Assembly (NCBI GenBank): GCA_021161835.1
Contig: JAGGZV010000003.1
Location: 1-53,551 of the forward strand
Source of the DNA: Thermotogota bacterium
GTDB lineage: Bacteria > Thermotogota > Thermotogae > UBA12178
Length of the DNA: 53,551 nt
Direction: 5' to 3'
A program made the position numbers and the translations under genes. The notes beneath the pieces are model-generated. The model ran no database searches and was not told where the DNA came from. It saw nothing but the letters and a program-made list of their open reading frames with translations. This document shows positions 3 to 5,717 of the stretch, piece after piece. Position 1 is the first letter of the stretch; every line of letters begins with the position of its first letter.

Positions 3-2165
3 GAAGCGACGGAGGGGTTTACACAAAAAGAGGCAGAGGAAGAATACGTTCAGGAAGGGACAGCGTTTTTGAAACTCAAGCCTGCGAACGATCTTGCGAA
101 AGGAGCGAAGGTATACATAGACGGAAAGTACGCTGGGGAGATAGGAGGAGAGCTATTTGTGAAAGAGATCCCTGCAGGAAAGCATGAAATATTGATAACG
201 AGTGAGAAGATAGAGGACATAAAGCTCGATGTGGAAGTGGGCGAATATGAGGCATATGAGAAAACTATCAGAGGCAAACCGGCAACGAGGGTGGTAAAGA
301 TCATCACGGAACCTGTCGGTGCAAAGGTTTACAGAAACGGGGAATATGTCGACATGTCACCCACGTTCCTCAAATTGGAAGTTGGAAAGACCTACAGAAT
401 AAGACTTGAAAAAGAAGGATATGAAACGAGAGAAATCAGCATATACATCCCGAAAAAAGGCCCGGTGGTTGAGAAGAAGTATGAACTGGAAGCGAAGAAA
501 AGCGTGCTCAGGGTCAATACGACCCCTCAAGGTGCGAAAGTCTACCTGAACGGCAGCTACGTTGGCCTGACTCCCTTGAAGCTTTCAAAACCAGCTGAGC
601 CTATAAAAGGAACCATAGAAATTGTGAAGCAAGGATACGCAAAAGAAGAGCTCGAAGTTCACATAACTCCTGGAGAGGAGAAGAGTATAGACATCAAACT
701 AAAGCGGGTGGTGACTCTGGATATAAGAACGACTCCATCTGGTGCGGAGGTTTATCTCAACGGCAAGTACATAGGAACGACGCCGCTTTATAAGGAGGTA
801 GTGTTGAAGGGAAGCGGGAAGCTGGTGATAAAAAAGGCGGGGTATGAAGCTCTGGAGAAAGAGGTATTCTCCTGGGATAACCGCATAGTGATAAGCGTTG
901 CCTTGAAGAAATTGCCAACCCCTTCCATCATCTGGCAAAAGTGCCTTGGAGGGAGCGGGGGTGATTGGGCTTGGTCAGTATCCGTCACGCCAGATGGAGG
1001 TTACATTGTAGCTGGGACTACACACTCAAACGATGGGGACGTGAGGAGGAATCATGGAGGAGGAGATTTCTGGGTGGTGAAACTTGACAGGAATGGGAAC
1101 ATAGTCTGGCAGAGAGCACTTGGAGGGAGCAGGGATGATGAAGCCTACTCAGTAGCTGTGACGCCAGATGGAGGATACATCGTCGCTGGGTATACGGAAT
1201 CAAACGACGGGGACGTGAAGGGGAATCATGGAGGAGGAGATTTCTGGGTGGTGAAACTTGACAGGAATGGGAACATAGTCTGGCAGAGAGCACTTGGAGG
1301 GAGCAGAGGTGATGTAGCCTTATCAGTATCCGTCACGCCGGATGGAGGTTACATTGTAGCTGGGATTACACGCTCAAACGATGGGGACGTGAGGGGGAAT
1401 CATGGAGAAGGAGACTTTTGGGTGGTGAAACTTGACAGGAATGGGAACATAGTCTGGCAGAGAGCACTTGGAGGAGGCTGGAATGATGTAGCTTACTCAG
1501 TATCCGTCACGCCAGATGGAGGATGCATCGTAGCTGGGTACACGTGGTCAATTGACGGGGACGTGAGGGGGAATCATGGAGGAGGAGATTTCTGGGTGGT
1601 GAAACTTGACAGGAATGGGAACATAGTCTGGCAGAGAGCACTTGGAGGGAGCTTGGAGGATTGGGTCTACTCAGTAACCGTGACGCCGGATGGAGGGTAC
1701 ATCGTAGCTGGGTACACACTCTCAAACGGCGGGGACGTGAGAGGAAAGCATGGAGGAGCAGATTTTTGGATAGTGAAGCTTGACAAGGATGGGAACGTAG
1801 AATGGCAGAAGTGCCTTGGAGGGAGCAATGATGATGCAGCCTACTCAGTGGCTGTCACTCCAGATGGAGGATACATCGTAGCTGGGGTGACATGGTCAAA
1901 TGACGGTGACGTGAGTGGAAATCATGGATACGGGGATTTTTGGGTAGTGAAGCTTGACGGGGAGGGAAACATAGTCTGGCAGAGAGCACTTGGAGGGAAC
2001 GAAGATGATTCAGCCTTATCAGTATCCGTCACACCGGATGGAGGATACATCGTAGCTGGGTACACGCAATCATATGACGGAGACGTGAAAGGGTGGCATG
2101 AGGGATATGATGAAAATTGGAAACCATATCCAGACTTCTGGATCGTCAAACTCGGCTGGAAATAA
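3..2165 (+). CDS. PEGA-domain protein with C-terminal 7-repeat beta-propeller-like domain (5' end lies outside the window)
   Basis: Frame is open from position 3 (EATEGFTQKEAEEEYVQEGTAFLKLKP...), so TTG at 69 is probably not the true start. Four PEGA-like motifs (GAKVYIDG, GAKVYRNG, GAKVYLNG, GAEVYLNG) precede seven 58-aa repeats (IVWQRALGGS..D.AYSV.VTPDGGYIVAG.T.S.DGDV..NHG.GDFWVVKLD.NGN). Confidence 0.85.
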   Translation, partial: EATEGFTQKEAEEEYVQEGTAFLKLKPANDLAKGAKVYIDGKYAGEIGGELFVKEIPAGKHEILITSEKIEDIKLDVEVGEYEAYEKTIRGKPATRVVKIITEPVGAKVYRNGEYVDMSPTFLKLEVGKTYRIRLEKEGYETREISIYIPKKGPVVEKKYELEAKKSVLRVNTTPQGAKVYLNGSYVGLTPLKLSKPAEPIKGTIEIVKQGYAKEELEVHITPGEEKSIDIKLKRVVTLDIRTTPSGAEVYLNGKYIGTTPLYKEVVLKGSGKLVIKKAGYEALEKEVFSWDNRIVISVALKKLPTPSIIWQKCLGGSGGDWAWSVSVTPDGGYIVAGTTHSNDGDVRRNHGGGDFWVVKLDRNGNIVWQRALGGSRDDEAYSVAVTPDGGYIVAGYTESNDGDVKGNHGGGDFWVVKLDRNGNIVWQRALGGSRGDVALSVSVTPDGGYIVAGITRSNDGDVRGNHGEGDFWVVKLDRNGNIVWQRALGGGWNDVAYSVSVTPDGGCIVAGYTWSIDGDVRGNHGGGDFWVVKLDRNGNIVWQRALGGSLEDWVYSVTVTPDGGYIVAGYTLSNGGDVRGKHGGADFWIVKLDKDGNVEWQKCLGGSNDDAAYSVAVTPDGGYIVAGVTWSNDGDVSGNHGYGDFWVVKLDGEGNIVWQRALGGNEDDSALSVSVTPDGGYIVAGYTQSYDGDVKGWHEGYDENWKPYPDFWIVKLGWK
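927..2162 (+). repeat. Intragenic tandem repeat, 7 x 174 bp
   Basis: Units start at 927, 1101, 1275, 1449, 1623, 1797 and 1971 (exact 174-bp period). A 56-nt block, tgggtggtgaaacttgacaggaatgggaacatagtctggcagagagcacttggagg, is identical at 1071, 1245, 1419 and 1593. Confidence 0.95.
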
Positions 2166-2211
2166 GAGAAAGGGTACTTCGAGGCAACTGCCTGAAATCG
2201 CTTCGCCGAAT

Positions 2212-2243
2212 AAAAAACTACCCCGCCACCGGCGGGGTTTTTT
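2212..2243 (+). terminator. Intrinsic terminator (possibly bidirectional)
   Basis: CCCCGCC-acc-GGCGGGG stem (2221-2237) with T6 after it and A6 before it. Confidence 0.8.
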
Positions 2244-2249
2244 GCGCTC

Positions 2250-2258
2250 TGCTATAAT
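2250..2258 (+). promoter_or_regulatory. Extended -10 promoter of the AAA/nuclease gene
   Basis: TGcTATAAT, followed by SD-like GGGGGTGA and ATG at 2281. Confidence 0.6.
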
Positions 2259-2280
2259 CCTCCATGGGGGTGACCTGGAT

Positions 2281-3981
2281 ATGAAAAACCTTCCAATAGG
2301 TGTAGAAGACTTTGAGGAGATTATAGAAGGTGGTTATTACTATGTTGACAAATCTCTTTTGATAAAGGATATAATGGATCTTCCTGGGAAGATAAAGCTC
2401 ATAACAAGACCAAGGCGATTTGGGAAGACATTGAACATGAGCATGGTGGAGAATTTCTTTTCGCTGTTCAAGAAGAATGATTTATTTGAAGGTCTTGCGA
2501 TATGGGATGAAAAAGCAATAGTTAAGGATAACTACCACAAATGGCCTGTTGTGTTTGTGTCCTTTAAGGAATTGAAGGATACAGATTGGGAAAGAGCAGT
2601 TGTTCACATGAAAGCAATGCTCAGTGAGGTTGCGCTTAAATATCTGGAATACGTGAAGAATGATTCGGACAGAAAATTCTTGAAACGTCTAGCAGACATC
2701 GAGGCATATTTGGAAGAATACGGAACTCTTTTAAAGAGAGTGACGAGGATTCTACACGAAAAGTTTGGAAAGAAAGTGATTCTCCTGATAGACGAATATG
2801 ACGTACCAATAGAGGCTGCATATACGAATAGGCACAAGGATCCTGATTATTATGACAACATGGTGGCCTTCATGAGGAACATGCTGACTGCAGCGCTCAA
2901 GGGGAATGAGTATTTAGAGTTCGGGATCCTTACAGGAGTTTACAGAGTTGCGAAAGAGTCTATTTTCTCGGGTCTAAACAATCTTGAAGTCTTCACGGTA
3001 TTTGACAATGCCATGGAAATGAGATTTGGTTTCACGGAGGAAGAGATAAAGAAGCTTCTTGAATATTACAGCCTTAACGAAGAGGATAAAAAAATCGTCG
3101 ATGAGTGGTATGGAGGTTTCAGAATAGGGGAATACGCTCCCCTTTACAACCCCTGGAGTGTGATCAAGTACATCAAAGAAAGGATACATGGAAGGTGTGA
3201 CCCAGAAAAGGCGGCGCAGTCATACTGGATAAACACATCATCAAACGACATTATAAAGGAGCAGGTGGAGAAAAAAACTCAGGTTAAAGACAAACTCGAT
3301 GCATTGCTTGAAGGGAAGGAAGTAAAAGTCAGGCTCGATCCATGGCTTTCGTTGAGAGAACTTGAGGAGGTGCCTTCCGGTGTTTGGACACTTCTCGCAT
3401 CGAGTGGGTACCTGGCTGCAAGGTACATTGAGAGGAAAATCTATACAGTCAGGATACCGAACAAGGAGATAGAGGAGTTCTTCAAAGACGTTGTGGGTGT
3501 ATGGCTCAAGGAAACGGTGGGATTTTCCGGTGATGAACTTTACTTTGTGCTTGAGGAGATGCTATCTGATGGGAAGGTTGAAAGGTTCAAGGAACTTCTT
3601 GATAAATTCATAAAGAACTCGCTCAGCTATTATGACTTTGGCTTTGAAGAACCGGAGCGTGTGTACAAAGCGTTTCTTTTAGGGATGCTTTCGATAGCGA
3701 TAAACGGGTATGAGGTAGAAAGTGAGATGGAATCAGGATACGGACGGCTTGATGTTGTGATATATCCGAAAGAAAGGCGATATGGAAGCTATGCGGCGAT
3801 ATTTGAAGTGAAGCGTGCAGATAGTGAAAAGAATCTTGAAGATCTTGCAAAGCAAGCACTGGAGCAGATAAAGGGGAAAGAATACTATGCGAAGATGAAA
3901 GAAAAGGGATATGGGATAATAGGTTTTGGGATAGCGTTTTGTGGAAAGAAAGCAATGGTGAACAGTCGGATTTTATATTAG
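2281..3981 (+). CDS. AAA-ATPase-like domain plus PD-(D/E)XK nuclease (PDDEXK_9-type) protein
   Basis: N-terminus MKNLPIGVEDF...YYVDKS, Walker A-like RPRRFGKT, Walker B LIDEYD, SGLNNL, YNPWSV, YWINTSSN; C-terminal GYGRLDVVI...IFEVK...ALEQI..KEY. Start moved from 2098 to the SD-supported ATG at 2281. Confidence 0.88.
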   Translation: MKNLPIGVEDFEEIIEGGYYYVDKSLLIKDIMDLPGKIKLITRPRRFGKTLNMSMVENFFSLFKKNDLFEGLAIWDEKAIVKDNYHKWPVVFVSFKELKDTDWERAVVHMKAMLSEVALKYLEYVKNDSDRKFLKRLADIEAYLEEYGTLLKRVTRILHEKFGKKVILLIDEYDVPIEAAYTNRHKDPDYYDNMVAFMRNMLTAALKGNEYLEFGILTGVYRVAKESIFSGLNNLEVFTVFDNAMEMRFGFTEEEIKKLLEYYSLNEEDKKIVDEWYGGFRIGEYAPLYNPWSVIKYIKERIHGRCDPEKAAQSYWINTSSNDIIKEQVEKKTQVKDKLDALLEGKEVKVRLDPWLSLRELEEVPSGVWTLLASSGYLAARYIERKIYTVRIPNKEIEEFFKDVVGVWLKETVGFSGDELYFVLEEMLSDGKVERFKELLDKFIKNSLSYYDFGFEEPERVYKAFLLGMLSIAINGYEVESEMESGYGRLDVVIYPKERRYGSYAAIFEVKRADSEKNLEDLAKQALEQIKGKEYYAKMKEKGYGIIGFGIAFCGKKAMVNSRILY

Positions 3982-4240: not shown

Positions 4241-4316
4241 GCGGCCGTAGCTCACTTGGTAGAGCACCAGCTTCCCAAGCTGGGGGTCGCGGGTTCGAGT
4301 CCCGTCGGCCGCTCCA
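4241..4316 (+). tRNA. tRNA-Gly(CCC)
   Basis: Acceptor stem GCGGCCG/CGGCCGC, anticodon arm CCAGC-ttCCCaa-GCTGG, GGTTCGAGTCC T-arm, encoded CCA. Confidence 0.97.
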
Positions 4317-4323
4317 TAAATGG

Positions 4324-4400
4324 GCAGGCGTAGCTTCAATCGGTGGAGCGCCGCCTTGGTAAGGCGGAGGTTGTGGGTTCGAGTCCCATCGCCTGCTCCA
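4324..4400 (+). tRNA. tRNA-Thr(GGT)
   Basis: Acceptor stem GCAGGCG/CGCCTGC, anticodon arm CCGCC-ttGGTaa-GGCGG, GGTTCGAGTCC T-arm, encoded CCA. Confidence 0.97.
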
Positions 4401-4429: not shown

Positions 4430-5717
4430 ATTTTTGTATAATTACCGGTCCAAGTCGCATATCCCGTTCGTAGGATCTATGCTCTTCGGATCTGAAGAAA
4501 ACCGAGTGTATGTTGGTAGCCCTCACGTCGAGTTCGAACTGTTCGATGAACAGAGAAGGATCGATATGCATGAATCTCTCTTTCTTGAGCGATTTTTTTA
4601 GCACCTGTATGTACTGAGAAGCGTTGGTCACATGGGGTAGGAGTGCCTTTTCTCTGATGATGGCCAGTAGTTTCCTTCCTTTTTTCGTGAAGCCCAGGAT
4701 TCTGAGATATTGAGGTCCTTTCTTGTTACTGCTGTTGACAAGATCTTTCCTCATCATGAGAATCGGGTAGAGCGAGAGGCGCCTCAATCGTGAAAAAGTG
4801 AAGCGCTTGGTTTTAACTTTTTCCAGCAGGTCCAGTGCATCTCTGGAACGGGGGGCATACTTCGCGAAACGTTCATCCAGACCTTCGTTGAACCCTGCGT
4901 AGTCACTCAAATCGGAGCGTTTCAGTGCTCTGAAGGTTGCGAGGATCAAAACACTGAGATCTTCGTAAAAAATGGGGCCACGACCTTCCCTGAATTCTCT
5001 CATAAGTATTTCGAAAGTTTGGGAAGGAACGGCTTCTTTCACCTTTTCCATATCCTGCGACTTTATCGAATTACGTATGGCCGTAGCGCTGGAGTATTTT
5101 CCTCTGTGATGTTGTTCGGTGTAGTCTGCTCCTATCCTTCTTATGGTGTGGAATTTCATGGAGGTTTTCAATCTGTAAGCGCTTACAAGATATTCCAGGC
5201 CCAGTATATCGTTGGAACGTGCTATGATGTCCACCAACGTAGGGTCGAGTATCCTCTTTTTTTCAACGTATCGCATTATTGCAACACGTCTGGCGTTGGG
5301 AAATGATAGCCCTTTTTTTAGTTCCTGGTGCAGATATTCAACGTAATCTTCTGGTTCCTCTACAATTATCTCCGCTATTTTCTTCAGGATATCGATTTTG
5401 CCAGATTCGCTGCCGAAAACAACGTCGGTTACAACGTGAGTGTTGTGAAGGATCGCTACTGCTCCAAAGGCGAATCCGCCTGCATCCTGAATGGCGAACA
5501 CGGTGGGAAGCTCCACAACCACATCGATTCCGGATCTGAGAGCCATCTCTGTTCGAGCGAATTTGTCAACCACGGCAGGTTCTCCACGTTGGGTAAAGTT
5601 TCCACTCATAACTGCCAGCGTGTAATCGGGTTGTACGAGTTCTTTGGCCTTATTCAAGTGGTAGAGATGTCCATGATGAAGCGGGTTGTATTCCACTATC
5701 ACTCCCAGTACTCTCAA
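4428..5717 (-). CDS. tmcAL: tRNA(Met) cytidine acetate ligase (UPF0348 nucleotidyltransferase)
   Basis: GVIVEYNPLHHGH (HIGH-like), MSGNFTQRGEPA, FGSESG, SNDILGLEY, SATAIR, KTKRFTFSRLRR, YLRILGF. Confidence 0.88.
   Translation of the reverse strand: MRVLGVIVEYNPLHHGHLYHLNKAKELVQPDYTLAVMSGNFTQRGEPAVVDKFARTEMALRSGIDVVVELPTVFAIQDAGGFAFGAVAILHNTHVVTDVVFGSESGKIDILKKIAEIIVEEPEDYVEYLHQELKKGLSFPNARRVAIMRYVEKKRILDPTLVDIIARSNDILGLEYLVSAYRLKTSMKFHTIRRIGADYTEQHHRGKYSSATAIRNSIKSQDMEKVKEAVPSQTFEILMREFREGRGPIFYEDLSVLILATFRALKRSDLSDYAGFNEGLDERFAKYAPRSRDALDLLEKVKTKRFTFSRLRRLSLYPILMMRKDLVNSSNKKGPQYLRILGFTKKGRKLLAIIREKALLPHVTNASQYIQVLKKSLKKERFMHIDPSLFIEQFELDVRATNIHSVFFRSEEHRSYERDMRLGPVIIQK

Follow-up and report, generated by a model that had tools for sequence, protein, structure and literature searches.

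A CylK-like propeller with young blades and a variable face in a PEGA-domain protein of a Thermotogota bacterium

Introduction

The best-described relative of the protein reported here is CylK, a Friedel-Crafts alkylating enzyme from Cylindrospermum (PDB 7RON and 7FH6) and the only studied member of its propeller family, which folds as a seven-bladed propeller of approximately 58-residue repeats. According to the available part of its structural description, the internal loops of the CylK propeller are long, a Ca2+ site is present wherever two blades meet, and the cleft residues lie at the propeller top face, in the substrate cleft (PMC8916777). Repeats of the same approximate period characterise the delta-60 (TIGR02608), DUF5122 and SBBP propellers, which are secreted or located at the cell surface, as also seems to be the case here. 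In this study we describe a gene at the beginning of a 53,551-nt contig from a Thermotogota bacterium (GenBank assembly GCA_021161835.1, contig JAGGZV010000003.1; this whole stretch is hereafter called the window) that encodes a PEGA stalk followed by a seven-bladed propeller. We consider it probable that this is a CylK-like propeller with a variable top face for ligand binding, and that its young blades and their diversity arose by ordinary processes.

Other repeat proteins provide points of comparison. Highly repetitive, recently amplified propellers, including the WRAP family, have been catalogued across lineages using a 60% blade-identity threshold, as set out in the accessible text of Pereira and Lupas, 2022 (PMC9218822). 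The accessible portions of two papers on fungal NOD-like receptor (NLR) proteins describe repeats that are internally highly conserved yet hypervariable, under selection, at certain positions of the binding face (PMC4986451, PMC11761791). Among prokaryotic caspase homologues WD40 is the commonest partner domain, and the available part of a 2012 survey records no such homologue in Thermotogae (PMC3501461).

The window is one whole contig (C74) of a 1.83-Mb metagenome assembly of 105 contigs that is 85.8% complete. A run search found the locus sequence in 12 sequencing runs from 9 studies, labelled as hydrothermal-vent metagenomes, and the best-matching named relatives of the window protein are Thermotogota genomes assembled from metagenomes.

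Results and Discussion

Repeat array and fold

Tandem Repeats Finder reported a single array at 945-2088 with a period of 174 bp, 6.6 copies and 82% matches, which corresponds to seven in-frame units of 58 residues spanning 945-2162 (Table 1). An earlier note on this DNA had proposed a seven-bladed propeller on a PEGA stalk, with 174-bp units sharing a 56-nt block that is identical in four copies, and each of these features was borne out. The block covers nt 127-174 of a unit and reaches 8 nt into the unit that follows; identity ends at both of its edges, and it has no further copy anywhere in the assembly. The longest stretch common to three blade copies is 79 nt, and that common to all four is the 56-nt block itself. 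Blades 1-4 are 82.8-87.9% identical as protein, and in blade 7 the long loop that joins strands 2 and 3 carries an inserted WHEGYDENWKPYPD. The PEGA assignment is unambiguous in Pfam (PF08308, 133 bits against a gathering cut-off of 20.8), with four stretches matched, of which residues 167-235 are the best.

An AlphaFold2 model of the propeller, built on an alignment of 50 sequences, had a mean predicted local distance difference test score (pLDDT) of 94.6 and a predicted template-modelling score (pTM) of 0.92, and comprised seven blades of four strands each, at blade positions 7-14, 20-26, 41-47 and 53-59. Residues 14-20 of the model form the N-terminal strand, and the C-terminal blade stops after its third strand. 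Foldseek returned CylK as the top match (E = 3.6e-23, query-normalised TM 0.84, 27% identity), with a query TM of at most 0.60 for all others, and CylK was also the sole strong solved relative by sequence (E = 1.7e-32 with a single sequence, 3e-32 with a profile). By analogy with CylK, the propeller is probably stabilised by calcium.

Curated models recognise the repeats poorly. Pfam gave WD40, ASST and DUF5122 matches that were all weak or sub-threshold (19.6 bits against a cut-off of 27 for DUF5122), the NCBIfam delta-60 model TIGR02608 scored 74.3 bits, just under its cut-off of 76.5, and SBBP gave no match; neighbours of the window protein in the protein atlas carry SBBP or DUF5122. Judged by these matches, the family is one without a good curated model that is related to the delta-60, DUF5122 and SBBP repeats.

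Variable positions and their placement

We number blade positions from the L of the LGG motif; adding 6 gives the numbers used in the earlier note. The six variable positions read exactly as listed there and correspond to positions 5, 6, 8, 10, 25 and 27. Across blades 1-7 the residues are G/R/R/W/L/N/E at position 5, G/D/G/N/E/D/D at position 6, W/E/V/V/W/A/S at position 8, W/Y/L/Y/Y/Y/L at position 10, T/Y/I/Y/Y/V/Y at position 25 and H/E/R/W/L/W/Q at position 27. Trp or Tyr occupies 14 of these 42 face residues.

In the AlphaFold2 model, positions 5 and 6 fall in the loop connecting strands 4 and 1, with positions 8 and 10 at the start of strand 1 and position 25 at the end of strand 2, while position 27 and positions 39 and 40, which vary in the wider family, lie at both ends of the loop between strands 2 and 3. 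The variable positions would therefore share one side of the propeller, the conventional top face around the central funnel, because both connections fall on the same side of a four-stranded meander whose strand 4 is outermost, as the velcro closure implies. Alignment with CylK leads to the same placement: Ser318, Glu374, Asp440 and Phe499 of CylK align with blade position 8, Leu438 with position 6, Asn334 with position 24/25 and Tyr473 with position 40, so that CylK cleft residues coincide with variable positions of the window gene. The prediction that the variable residues lie together on one face thus agrees with strand topology and with the CylK alignment, which are evidence of a different kind from measured distances.

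Blade history and rates of change

A tree of 42 blades from the source genome and two relatives placed blades 1-5 in one clade (support 97/80), joined blade 6 to them together with blade 4 of the paralogue on contig C17, with which it groups (97/75), and grouped blade 7 with other insertion-bearing blades. Outside the face codons, site patterns among blades 1-4 were ABAB at four sites, ABBA at one and AABB at none, from which we infer duplication of a two-blade unit; blades 1-4 appear to be recent and to derive most simply from duplication of such a 348-bp unit. The loop insertion is present in blades 1, 2, 5 and 7 of the metagenomic homologue P0121 (described below) and in blade 7 only of the window gene, which suggests re-amplification of an insertion-free blade in the window lineage.

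Nei-Gojobori estimates of the proportions of synonymous (pS) and nonsynonymous (pN) differences among blades 1-4 gave 0.11-0.27 for scaffold pS, 0.017-0.042 for scaffold pN and 0.32-0.77 for face pN, with Fisher P < 0.05 in five of the six blade pairs, which are not independent of one another. Counted on the four-blade tree, approximately 19 nonsynonymous face changes (18-19 by reconstruction) fell on 14.8 sites and 14 synonymous scaffold changes on 37.6 sites, a rate ratio of 3.4 (Poisson P = 6e-6). The nonsynonymous to synonymous rate ratio (dN/dS) of the scaffold is approximately 0.16, indicating purifying selection. The six variable codons (18 nt) also hold 15 of the 35 variable nucleotide columns of blades 1-4 (hypergeometric P = 1e-9). 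Since that set had been picked on the same data, we repeated the rate test with face positions defined from other proteins; using the eight most variable positions of 49 other proteins as the face, the ratio was 2.55 (Poisson P = 3e-4). By these counts, face change faster than synonymous change is evident in the youngest blades of the window gene, where the suggestion of positively selected positions holds, and it recurs in the family, where a per-codon test was marginal (see below).

The proposal of a DNA-homogenised scaffold survives in part. Blades 1-4 are indeed young, near-identical copies, and homogenisation beyond duplication is marginal: synonymous variation is present at 11 of the 43 candidate codons among these blades, and the 56-nt block taken alone is only slightly unusual, with a longest invariant run of 16 codons (permutation P = 0.04). 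Gene conversion as the only cause of the pattern was rejected, as the invariant block is barely longer than expected by chance. Conversion tracts should in any case be unable to yield it, because variable codons 5, 6, 8 and 10 alternate with the unchanged codons 7, 9 and 11.

A family-wide pattern

An exhaustive search with the propeller matched 129,752 cluster representatives at E <= 1e-3, 81,601 at E <= 1e-10 and 24,248 at E <= 1e-30, and a word-based search gave at least 7,997 matches among the 8,000 candidates scored. Many of the members come from Bacteroidota, as proteins with a type IX secretion tail, or from archaea, as PKD-domain proteins. The most variable blade positions in 49 other proteins were, in order, 27, 8, 40, 6, 25, 5, 39 and 10, so that the six positions noted in the window gene are all among the top eight, and position variability in the window gene correlated with that in the other proteins (Spearman 0.69). 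In 116 proteins with at least five blades recognised by script, drawn from the 120 best matches and three others, median within-protein identity was 0.68 for the scaffold and 0.13 at the six face positions. The corresponding values for the window gene are 0.86 and 0.17, and it ranks fourth for scaffold identity, a rank that is biased because matches were chosen by similarity to a consensus-like query. Tyr accounts for 14.2% of face residues and 3.1% of scaffold residues, and aromatic residues together for 24.5% and 10.4%; the face is enriched in Tyr, Trp, Arg and Asn.

Three of the 17 other genes examined contained young blade pairs (scaffold pS <= 0.30), 26 non-independent pairs in all, and face pN exceeded scaffold pS in 22 of them, with a pooled ratio of 2.8. 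The arrangement is therefore best described as a family-wide design, given that the same positions are the most variable throughout the family and that the same signature is found in other genes, and the notion that it is peculiar to this locus falls away. The window gene itself was not found in the 30 other genomes searched, where the best match was a stand-alone propeller with 65% identity. Two relatives, L002 (contig C19 of genome G006) and L003/L013 (Thermotoga sp. B21_G9, G010), are stand-alone seven-bladed propellers with N-termini resembling lipoprotein signals, in which a Cys follows a hydrophobic segment, and their blades are very alike in DNA (scaffold pS 0.05-0.28).

The whole protein and its paralogues

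The window protein is collinear with residues 343-1075 of P0121, its closest full-length homologue, and is 61% identical to it across an alignment of 736 columns. In P0121 (1075 aa), a start that resembles a signal peptide is followed by a Peptidase_C14 domain (residues 21-246) and then by PEGA domains and seven blades. The missing N-terminus of the window protein probably comprises a signal peptide and a caspase-like Peptidase_C14 domain, as in its homologues. By eye, homologues and paralogues have signal-peptide-like N-termini, which makes an extracytoplasmic location plausible and suggests that the protein is probably secreted. In this respect the idea of a surface or envelope receptor was well founded, and the term receptor is too narrow for a protein that probably carries a caspase-like protease upstream of its stalk.

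Peptidase_C14 genes or fragments with signal-peptide-like starts occur on five contigs of the source genome, and three of them run into PEGA sequence (Table 1). The first 400 nt of the window have no 21-mer in common with any other contig, so that no overlap was found from which the N-terminus of the gene could be extended. The gene on contig C37 was considered as an overlapping head and rejected, because its end is a paralogous segment and gives no overlap. The fragments on contigs C99 or C91 could be the missing head.

A search for paralogous repeats, which the earlier note had recommended, revealed at least eight paralogous propellers in the genome, whole or fragmentary (Table 1). Several are disrupted, which may reflect real decay or assembly errors. 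The five-bladed paralogue on contig C2 has a fifth blade that resembles the first half of blade 5 and the second half of blade 7 of the C41 paralogue, consistent with either blade deletion by repeat recombination or assembly collapse. No conserved operon partner was found: the three stand-alone paralogues have unrelated neighbours, which include genes for transglutaminase-like, urocanase, RNB-domain exoribonuclease, membrane transport, ROK-family, ABC ATPase and GFO/IDH/MocA oxidoreductase proteins.

Proposed function and alternative explanations

In the interpretation that we favour, a CylK-like seven-bladed propeller closed by a velcro strand would lie at the C-terminal end of a multi-domain protein that is probably secreted. 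The full protein would consist of a signal peptide, a Peptidase_C14 domain, a linker, four PEGA domains and the propeller, the first three being taken from homologues. Each blade would combine a conserved scaffold with six to eight variable positions (5, 6, 8, 10, 25 and 27, and in the family also 39 and 40), and these most likely form a ligand-binding surface because they are rich in Tyr and Trp, are specific to each blade and lie on the top face. This putative surface may bring the protein, or at least its upstream protease, to a target that lies in the cell envelope or beyond the cell. A 348-bp duplication of two blades would have given rise to blades 1-4, after which the face codons changed approximately three times faster than synonymous scaffold sites. 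Diversity would then stem from blade duplication and recombination, from face substitutions that were favoured or tolerated, and from birth and death of paralogues, with no dedicated mutagenesis system behind it; this diversity may be of adaptive value.

Several observations weigh against this interpretation. CylK, the only characterised homologue, is an enzyme and not a binder. The predicted clustering on one face comes from strand topology and the CylK alignment rather than from distances, and the N-terminus of the gene itself lies beyond the contig start, so that the caspase head would be deduced from homologues. The assembly is fragmented, such repeats break contigs, and the order and number of blades are known from the assembly alone. 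Gene conversion of the scaffold, if any, would lower synonymous divergence and inflate the rate ratio. In the paralogues, face positions were fully kept (0 of 6 differences) in four of the six positionally matched blade pairs, whereas one pair had diverged strongly, at 4 of 6, and the conserved faces appear to fit stable specificities better than continuous diversification. Finally, a family-wide per-codon test, using parsimony counts on 24 blades from eight genes or fragments, gave values of dN over global dS of 1.77, 1.52, 1.46 and 1.35 at positions 8, 27, 39 and 6, of 1.14, 1.06 and 1.06 at positions 5, 25 and 40, and of less than 0.6 at position 10, although this is one of the six positions first singled out. 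Only positions 8 and 27 had P < 0.05 and none survived Bonferroni correction; the test is conservative because parsimony undercounts changes at saturated codons.

These per-codon values, close to 1 (1.06 to 1.77) at all positions but position 10, speak for a neutral explanation, in which recent blade duplication was followed by drift, unconstrained surface residues saturated quickly and there is no ligand face. Because no codon passes correction, neutral drift of surface residues may operate outside blades 1-4. The same positions vary in every family member, as generally unconstrained sites would, and the excess was individually significant in only one of four young blade pairs of two Thermotogota relatives. 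Against this, the face codons of blades 1-4 changed at 2.5-3.4 times the synonymous rate (P = 3e-4 to 6e-6), which is above neutral, and the enrichment is in Tyr, Trp, Arg and Asn, as is typical of binding sites, rather than in small polar residues. The variable positions also match functional residues of the CylK cleft, and some face positions are kept between paralogues while the scaffold changes, which points to constraint once they are set. We regard neutral drift as unlikely, though by no means far-fetched.

A second possibility is that the top face carries out catalysis as it does in CylK, with blade-specific residues building an active site instead of a recognition surface. In its favour, the fold agrees closely with that of CylK, no other relative has been characterised, and the catalytic residues of CylK fall on variable positions. 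However, the N-terminal Ca2+ beta-roll domain of CylK, which supplies Arg105, is absent from both the window protein and P0121, where PEGA domains precede the propeller instead. The equivalents of the catalytic residues Tyr473 and Asp440 are not conserved, position 40 reading G/G/G/G/A/G/Y across blades 1-7 and position 8 being as variable as listed above. An active site should moreover be kept, yet a hand count from the alignment found only 7 of the 42 face residues shared with P0121, despite 61% overall identity. The window propeller blades are also far more alike than those of CylK. By the features tested, the window protein is not a CylK-type enzyme as far as its sequence indicates, and we hold a catalytic face to be very unlikely.

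No evidence for retroelement mutagenesis

Diversity-generating retroelements (DGRs) are recognised by a reverse transcriptase, a template repeat that differs at adenines, and variable codons of the AAY type. The earlier note had remarked that some codon sets in the array are compatible with DGR-style adenine mutagenesis, and this suggestion was not upheld. There were no RVT_1 matches in the 85.8% complete genome, whereas a control search was positive in three of 14 reference genomes. Of the 61 blastn alignments of the repeats, 48 lay outside the window contig, and among those of at least 100 bp none exceeded 72.7% identity, so that no template-like copy was found. With any blade taken as template, 24-39% of mismatches fell at a template A, compared with a base composition of 26-29% A, and all three codon positions vary in the face codons (in 5, 6 and 6 of the six codons), unlike AAY-type codons. 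A retroelement could still sit in unassembled sequence, and templated hypermutation by a DGR or similar system is nevertheless an extremely improbable source of the variable codons.

Assembly and read evidence

We also considered whether the order or number of near-identical blades might come from collapsed or chimeric paralogues or strains. The assembly has 105 contigs, most family members lie at contig ends or are fragmentary, the window starts inside the gene, and the C2 paralogue has five blades and a chimeric fifth; the accessible text of two papers reports that short-read assemblers fail on such repeats (PMC11761791, PMC9218822). On the other hand, the shared stretches (56 nt in four copies, 79 nt in three) do not reach the word sizes commonly used in assembly, no stop interrupts the frame, the model closes into a seven-bladed ring at high confidence and the same signature occurs in independent assemblies.

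Four runs were compared with the locus at 93% likeness, all as Logan contigs whose array pieces were at most 162 bp, with no piece crossing the full array. Logan contigs of run X1 reproduced 1103-1264 with no differences and 1277-1438 with two, although X1 may be the source sample. A joint in the Logan contigs from 1931 to 2133, which skips 201 nt, is supported by no more than 29 nt on its sides and is probably derived from a paralogue. Runs X5 and X6 covered the flanks at approximately 95-97% identity and left the array almost uncovered, so that they give no evidence either way. Taken together, an assembly artefact seems improbable. X5 and X6 are sediment and seawater metagenomes from two other studies that match the window at 1-480 and 2220-3000, which suggests that related strains occur elsewhere.

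Comparison with repeat-based recognition systems

The median of the 21 pairwise blade identities is 70.7% in our matrix, above the 60% threshold applied to recently amplified propellers in the accessible text of that study (PMC9218822), which also describes disrupted paralogues in the same genome, with an assembly caveat, as we find here. Unlike the WD40 or VCBS lineages covered there, the window propeller is CylK-like and delta-60-like, and only blades 1-4 are very young. Its apparent two-blade duplication is a mode of which the same accessible text gives a single case.

The fungal HET-E, HET-D and HNWD WD40 sensors resemble the window gene in combining similar repeats with a few hypervariable ligand-face positions at which dN exceeds dS, but repeat protein identity is lower, at 83-88% in blades 1-4 compared with 80-100% in the fungal sensors, as far as the accessible descriptions go (PMC4986451, PMC11761791). 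Repeats of the HNWD type, more than 80% identical and with fast binding-face positions, are represented here by blades 1-4 only (82.8-87.9%, ratio 3.4). The NACHT or NB-ARC (STAND) NTPase of fungal NLRs is found neither in the 720 visible residues nor in P0121, and fungal NLRs are cytoplasmic whereas the window protein is apparently secreted. Like prokaryotic caspase-WD40 fusions, the full protein would hold a caspase-like domain and a repeat propeller in one chain, here by way of the caspase domain predicted from homologues; it would differ from the fusions in the available part of the survey in having a signal peptide, and PEGA domains as the link, without an NTPase (PMC3501461). PADLOC gave no defence match for the window protein and only a generic caspase match for P0121, and no published description of this architecture was found in a literature search with thin coverage of subscription journals.

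The observations extend the fungal immune-receptor signature to secreted propellers of bacteria and archaea, which form a very large family that has hardly been characterised, and they single out six to eight residues per blade as predicted setters of specificity, which could guide a ligand search or scaffold engineering. They also tie the module to a family of secreted caspase-like proteases in Thermotogota, a phylum without such genes in the available part of the 2012 survey (PMC3501461). No new diversification mechanism is revealed. A more far-reaching proposal, which we consider quite unlikely, is that vent-dwelling Thermotogota hold an expanded family of such proteases with fast turnover, aimed by a propeller face that is renewed through blade duplication and positive selection. 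If so, these proteins would be an extracytoplasmic counterpart of the conflict systems of fungal and bacterial NLR-like proteins that join a repeat sensor to a caspase, and would serve to detect targets that change, for example competitors, phage or surface polymers. A diversifying face would in that case hold generally, and as yet without description, across a propeller family that numbers more than 100,000 sequence clusters.

Features of the locus

Table 1. Coordinates of the propeller gene and its parts in the window, and of related genes on other contigs of the same genome. The Peptidase_C14 rows correspond to loci L031-L035.
Feature	Location	Strand	Remarks
Coding sequence: PEGA stalk and seven-bladed propeller	3..2165	+	open reading frame (ORF) of 720 aa plus stop; 5'-open, cut by contig start
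Four PEGA domains (residues ~21-305)	63..917	+	Pfam PF08308; outer limits by eye from P0121 alignment
N-terminal velcro strand PSIIWQKC	921..944	+	resembles blade strand 4; completes blade 7, closing the ring
Blades 1-4	945..1640 (starts 945, 1119, 1293, 1467)	+	young copies; DNA identity 85.6-91.4%; pattern ((1,3),(2,4))
Blades 5 and 6	1641..1988 (starts 1641, 1815)	+	older; DNA identity to others 74.7-82.8%
Blade 7	1989..2162	+	DNA identity to others 55.7-60.3%; without fourth strand
56-nt block, four identical copies	1071..1126, 1245-1300, 1419-1474, 1593-1648	+	sequence comparison
Blade 1 variable codons 5, 6, 8, 10, 25, 27	957-962, 966-968, 972-974, 1017-1019, 1023-1025	+	add 174 per blade
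Terminator-like hairpin (2220-2238), then T run	2220..2245	+	8 pairs, 7 of them G-C; 55 nt past the stop codon
Peptidase_C14	C37: 17650-18942		ends in first PEGA-type segment, 69-70% identical to that of the window
Peptidase_C14	C51: 372-3371		caspase domain and six PEGA domains; ends in a PQQ-type, not a CylK-like, propeller
Peptidase_C14	C15: 237-2969	-	caspase domain and five PEGA domains
Peptidase_C14	C99: 3-830	-	N-terminal fragment without downstream part
Peptidase_C14	C91: 16173-16691		N-terminal fragment without downstream part
Propeller paralogue (locus L036)	C2: 1081-2070		stand-alone; signal peptide; five blades, the fifth chimeric
Propeller paralogue	C17: ~22220		in-frame TAG just after signal peptide
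Propeller paralogue	C41: ~5500-5575		frameshift between blades 4 and 5
Propeller remnant	C64: 419-688		one or two blades; in-frame stops
Propeller remnant	C70: 745-909		one or two blades; in-frame stops
Propeller remnant	C48: 2797-3021		one or two blades
Propeller remnant	C53
Further propeller paralogue or remnant	C8

No halogenase or polyketide genes were seen in the approximately 6 kb of the window examined downstream of the propeller gene. The downstream gene (2098-3981) encodes a protein with AAA-ATPase_like and PD-(D/E)XK (PDDEXK_9) domains. Its longest ORF begins within the propeller gene, 5' of the terminator-like hairpin, and its real start is probably an ATG near 2281, because the Pfam domain starts only at residue 66. 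Further along the plus strand, a tRNA-Gly(CCC) gene (4241-4316) adjoins a tRNA-Thr(GGU) gene (4324-4400).

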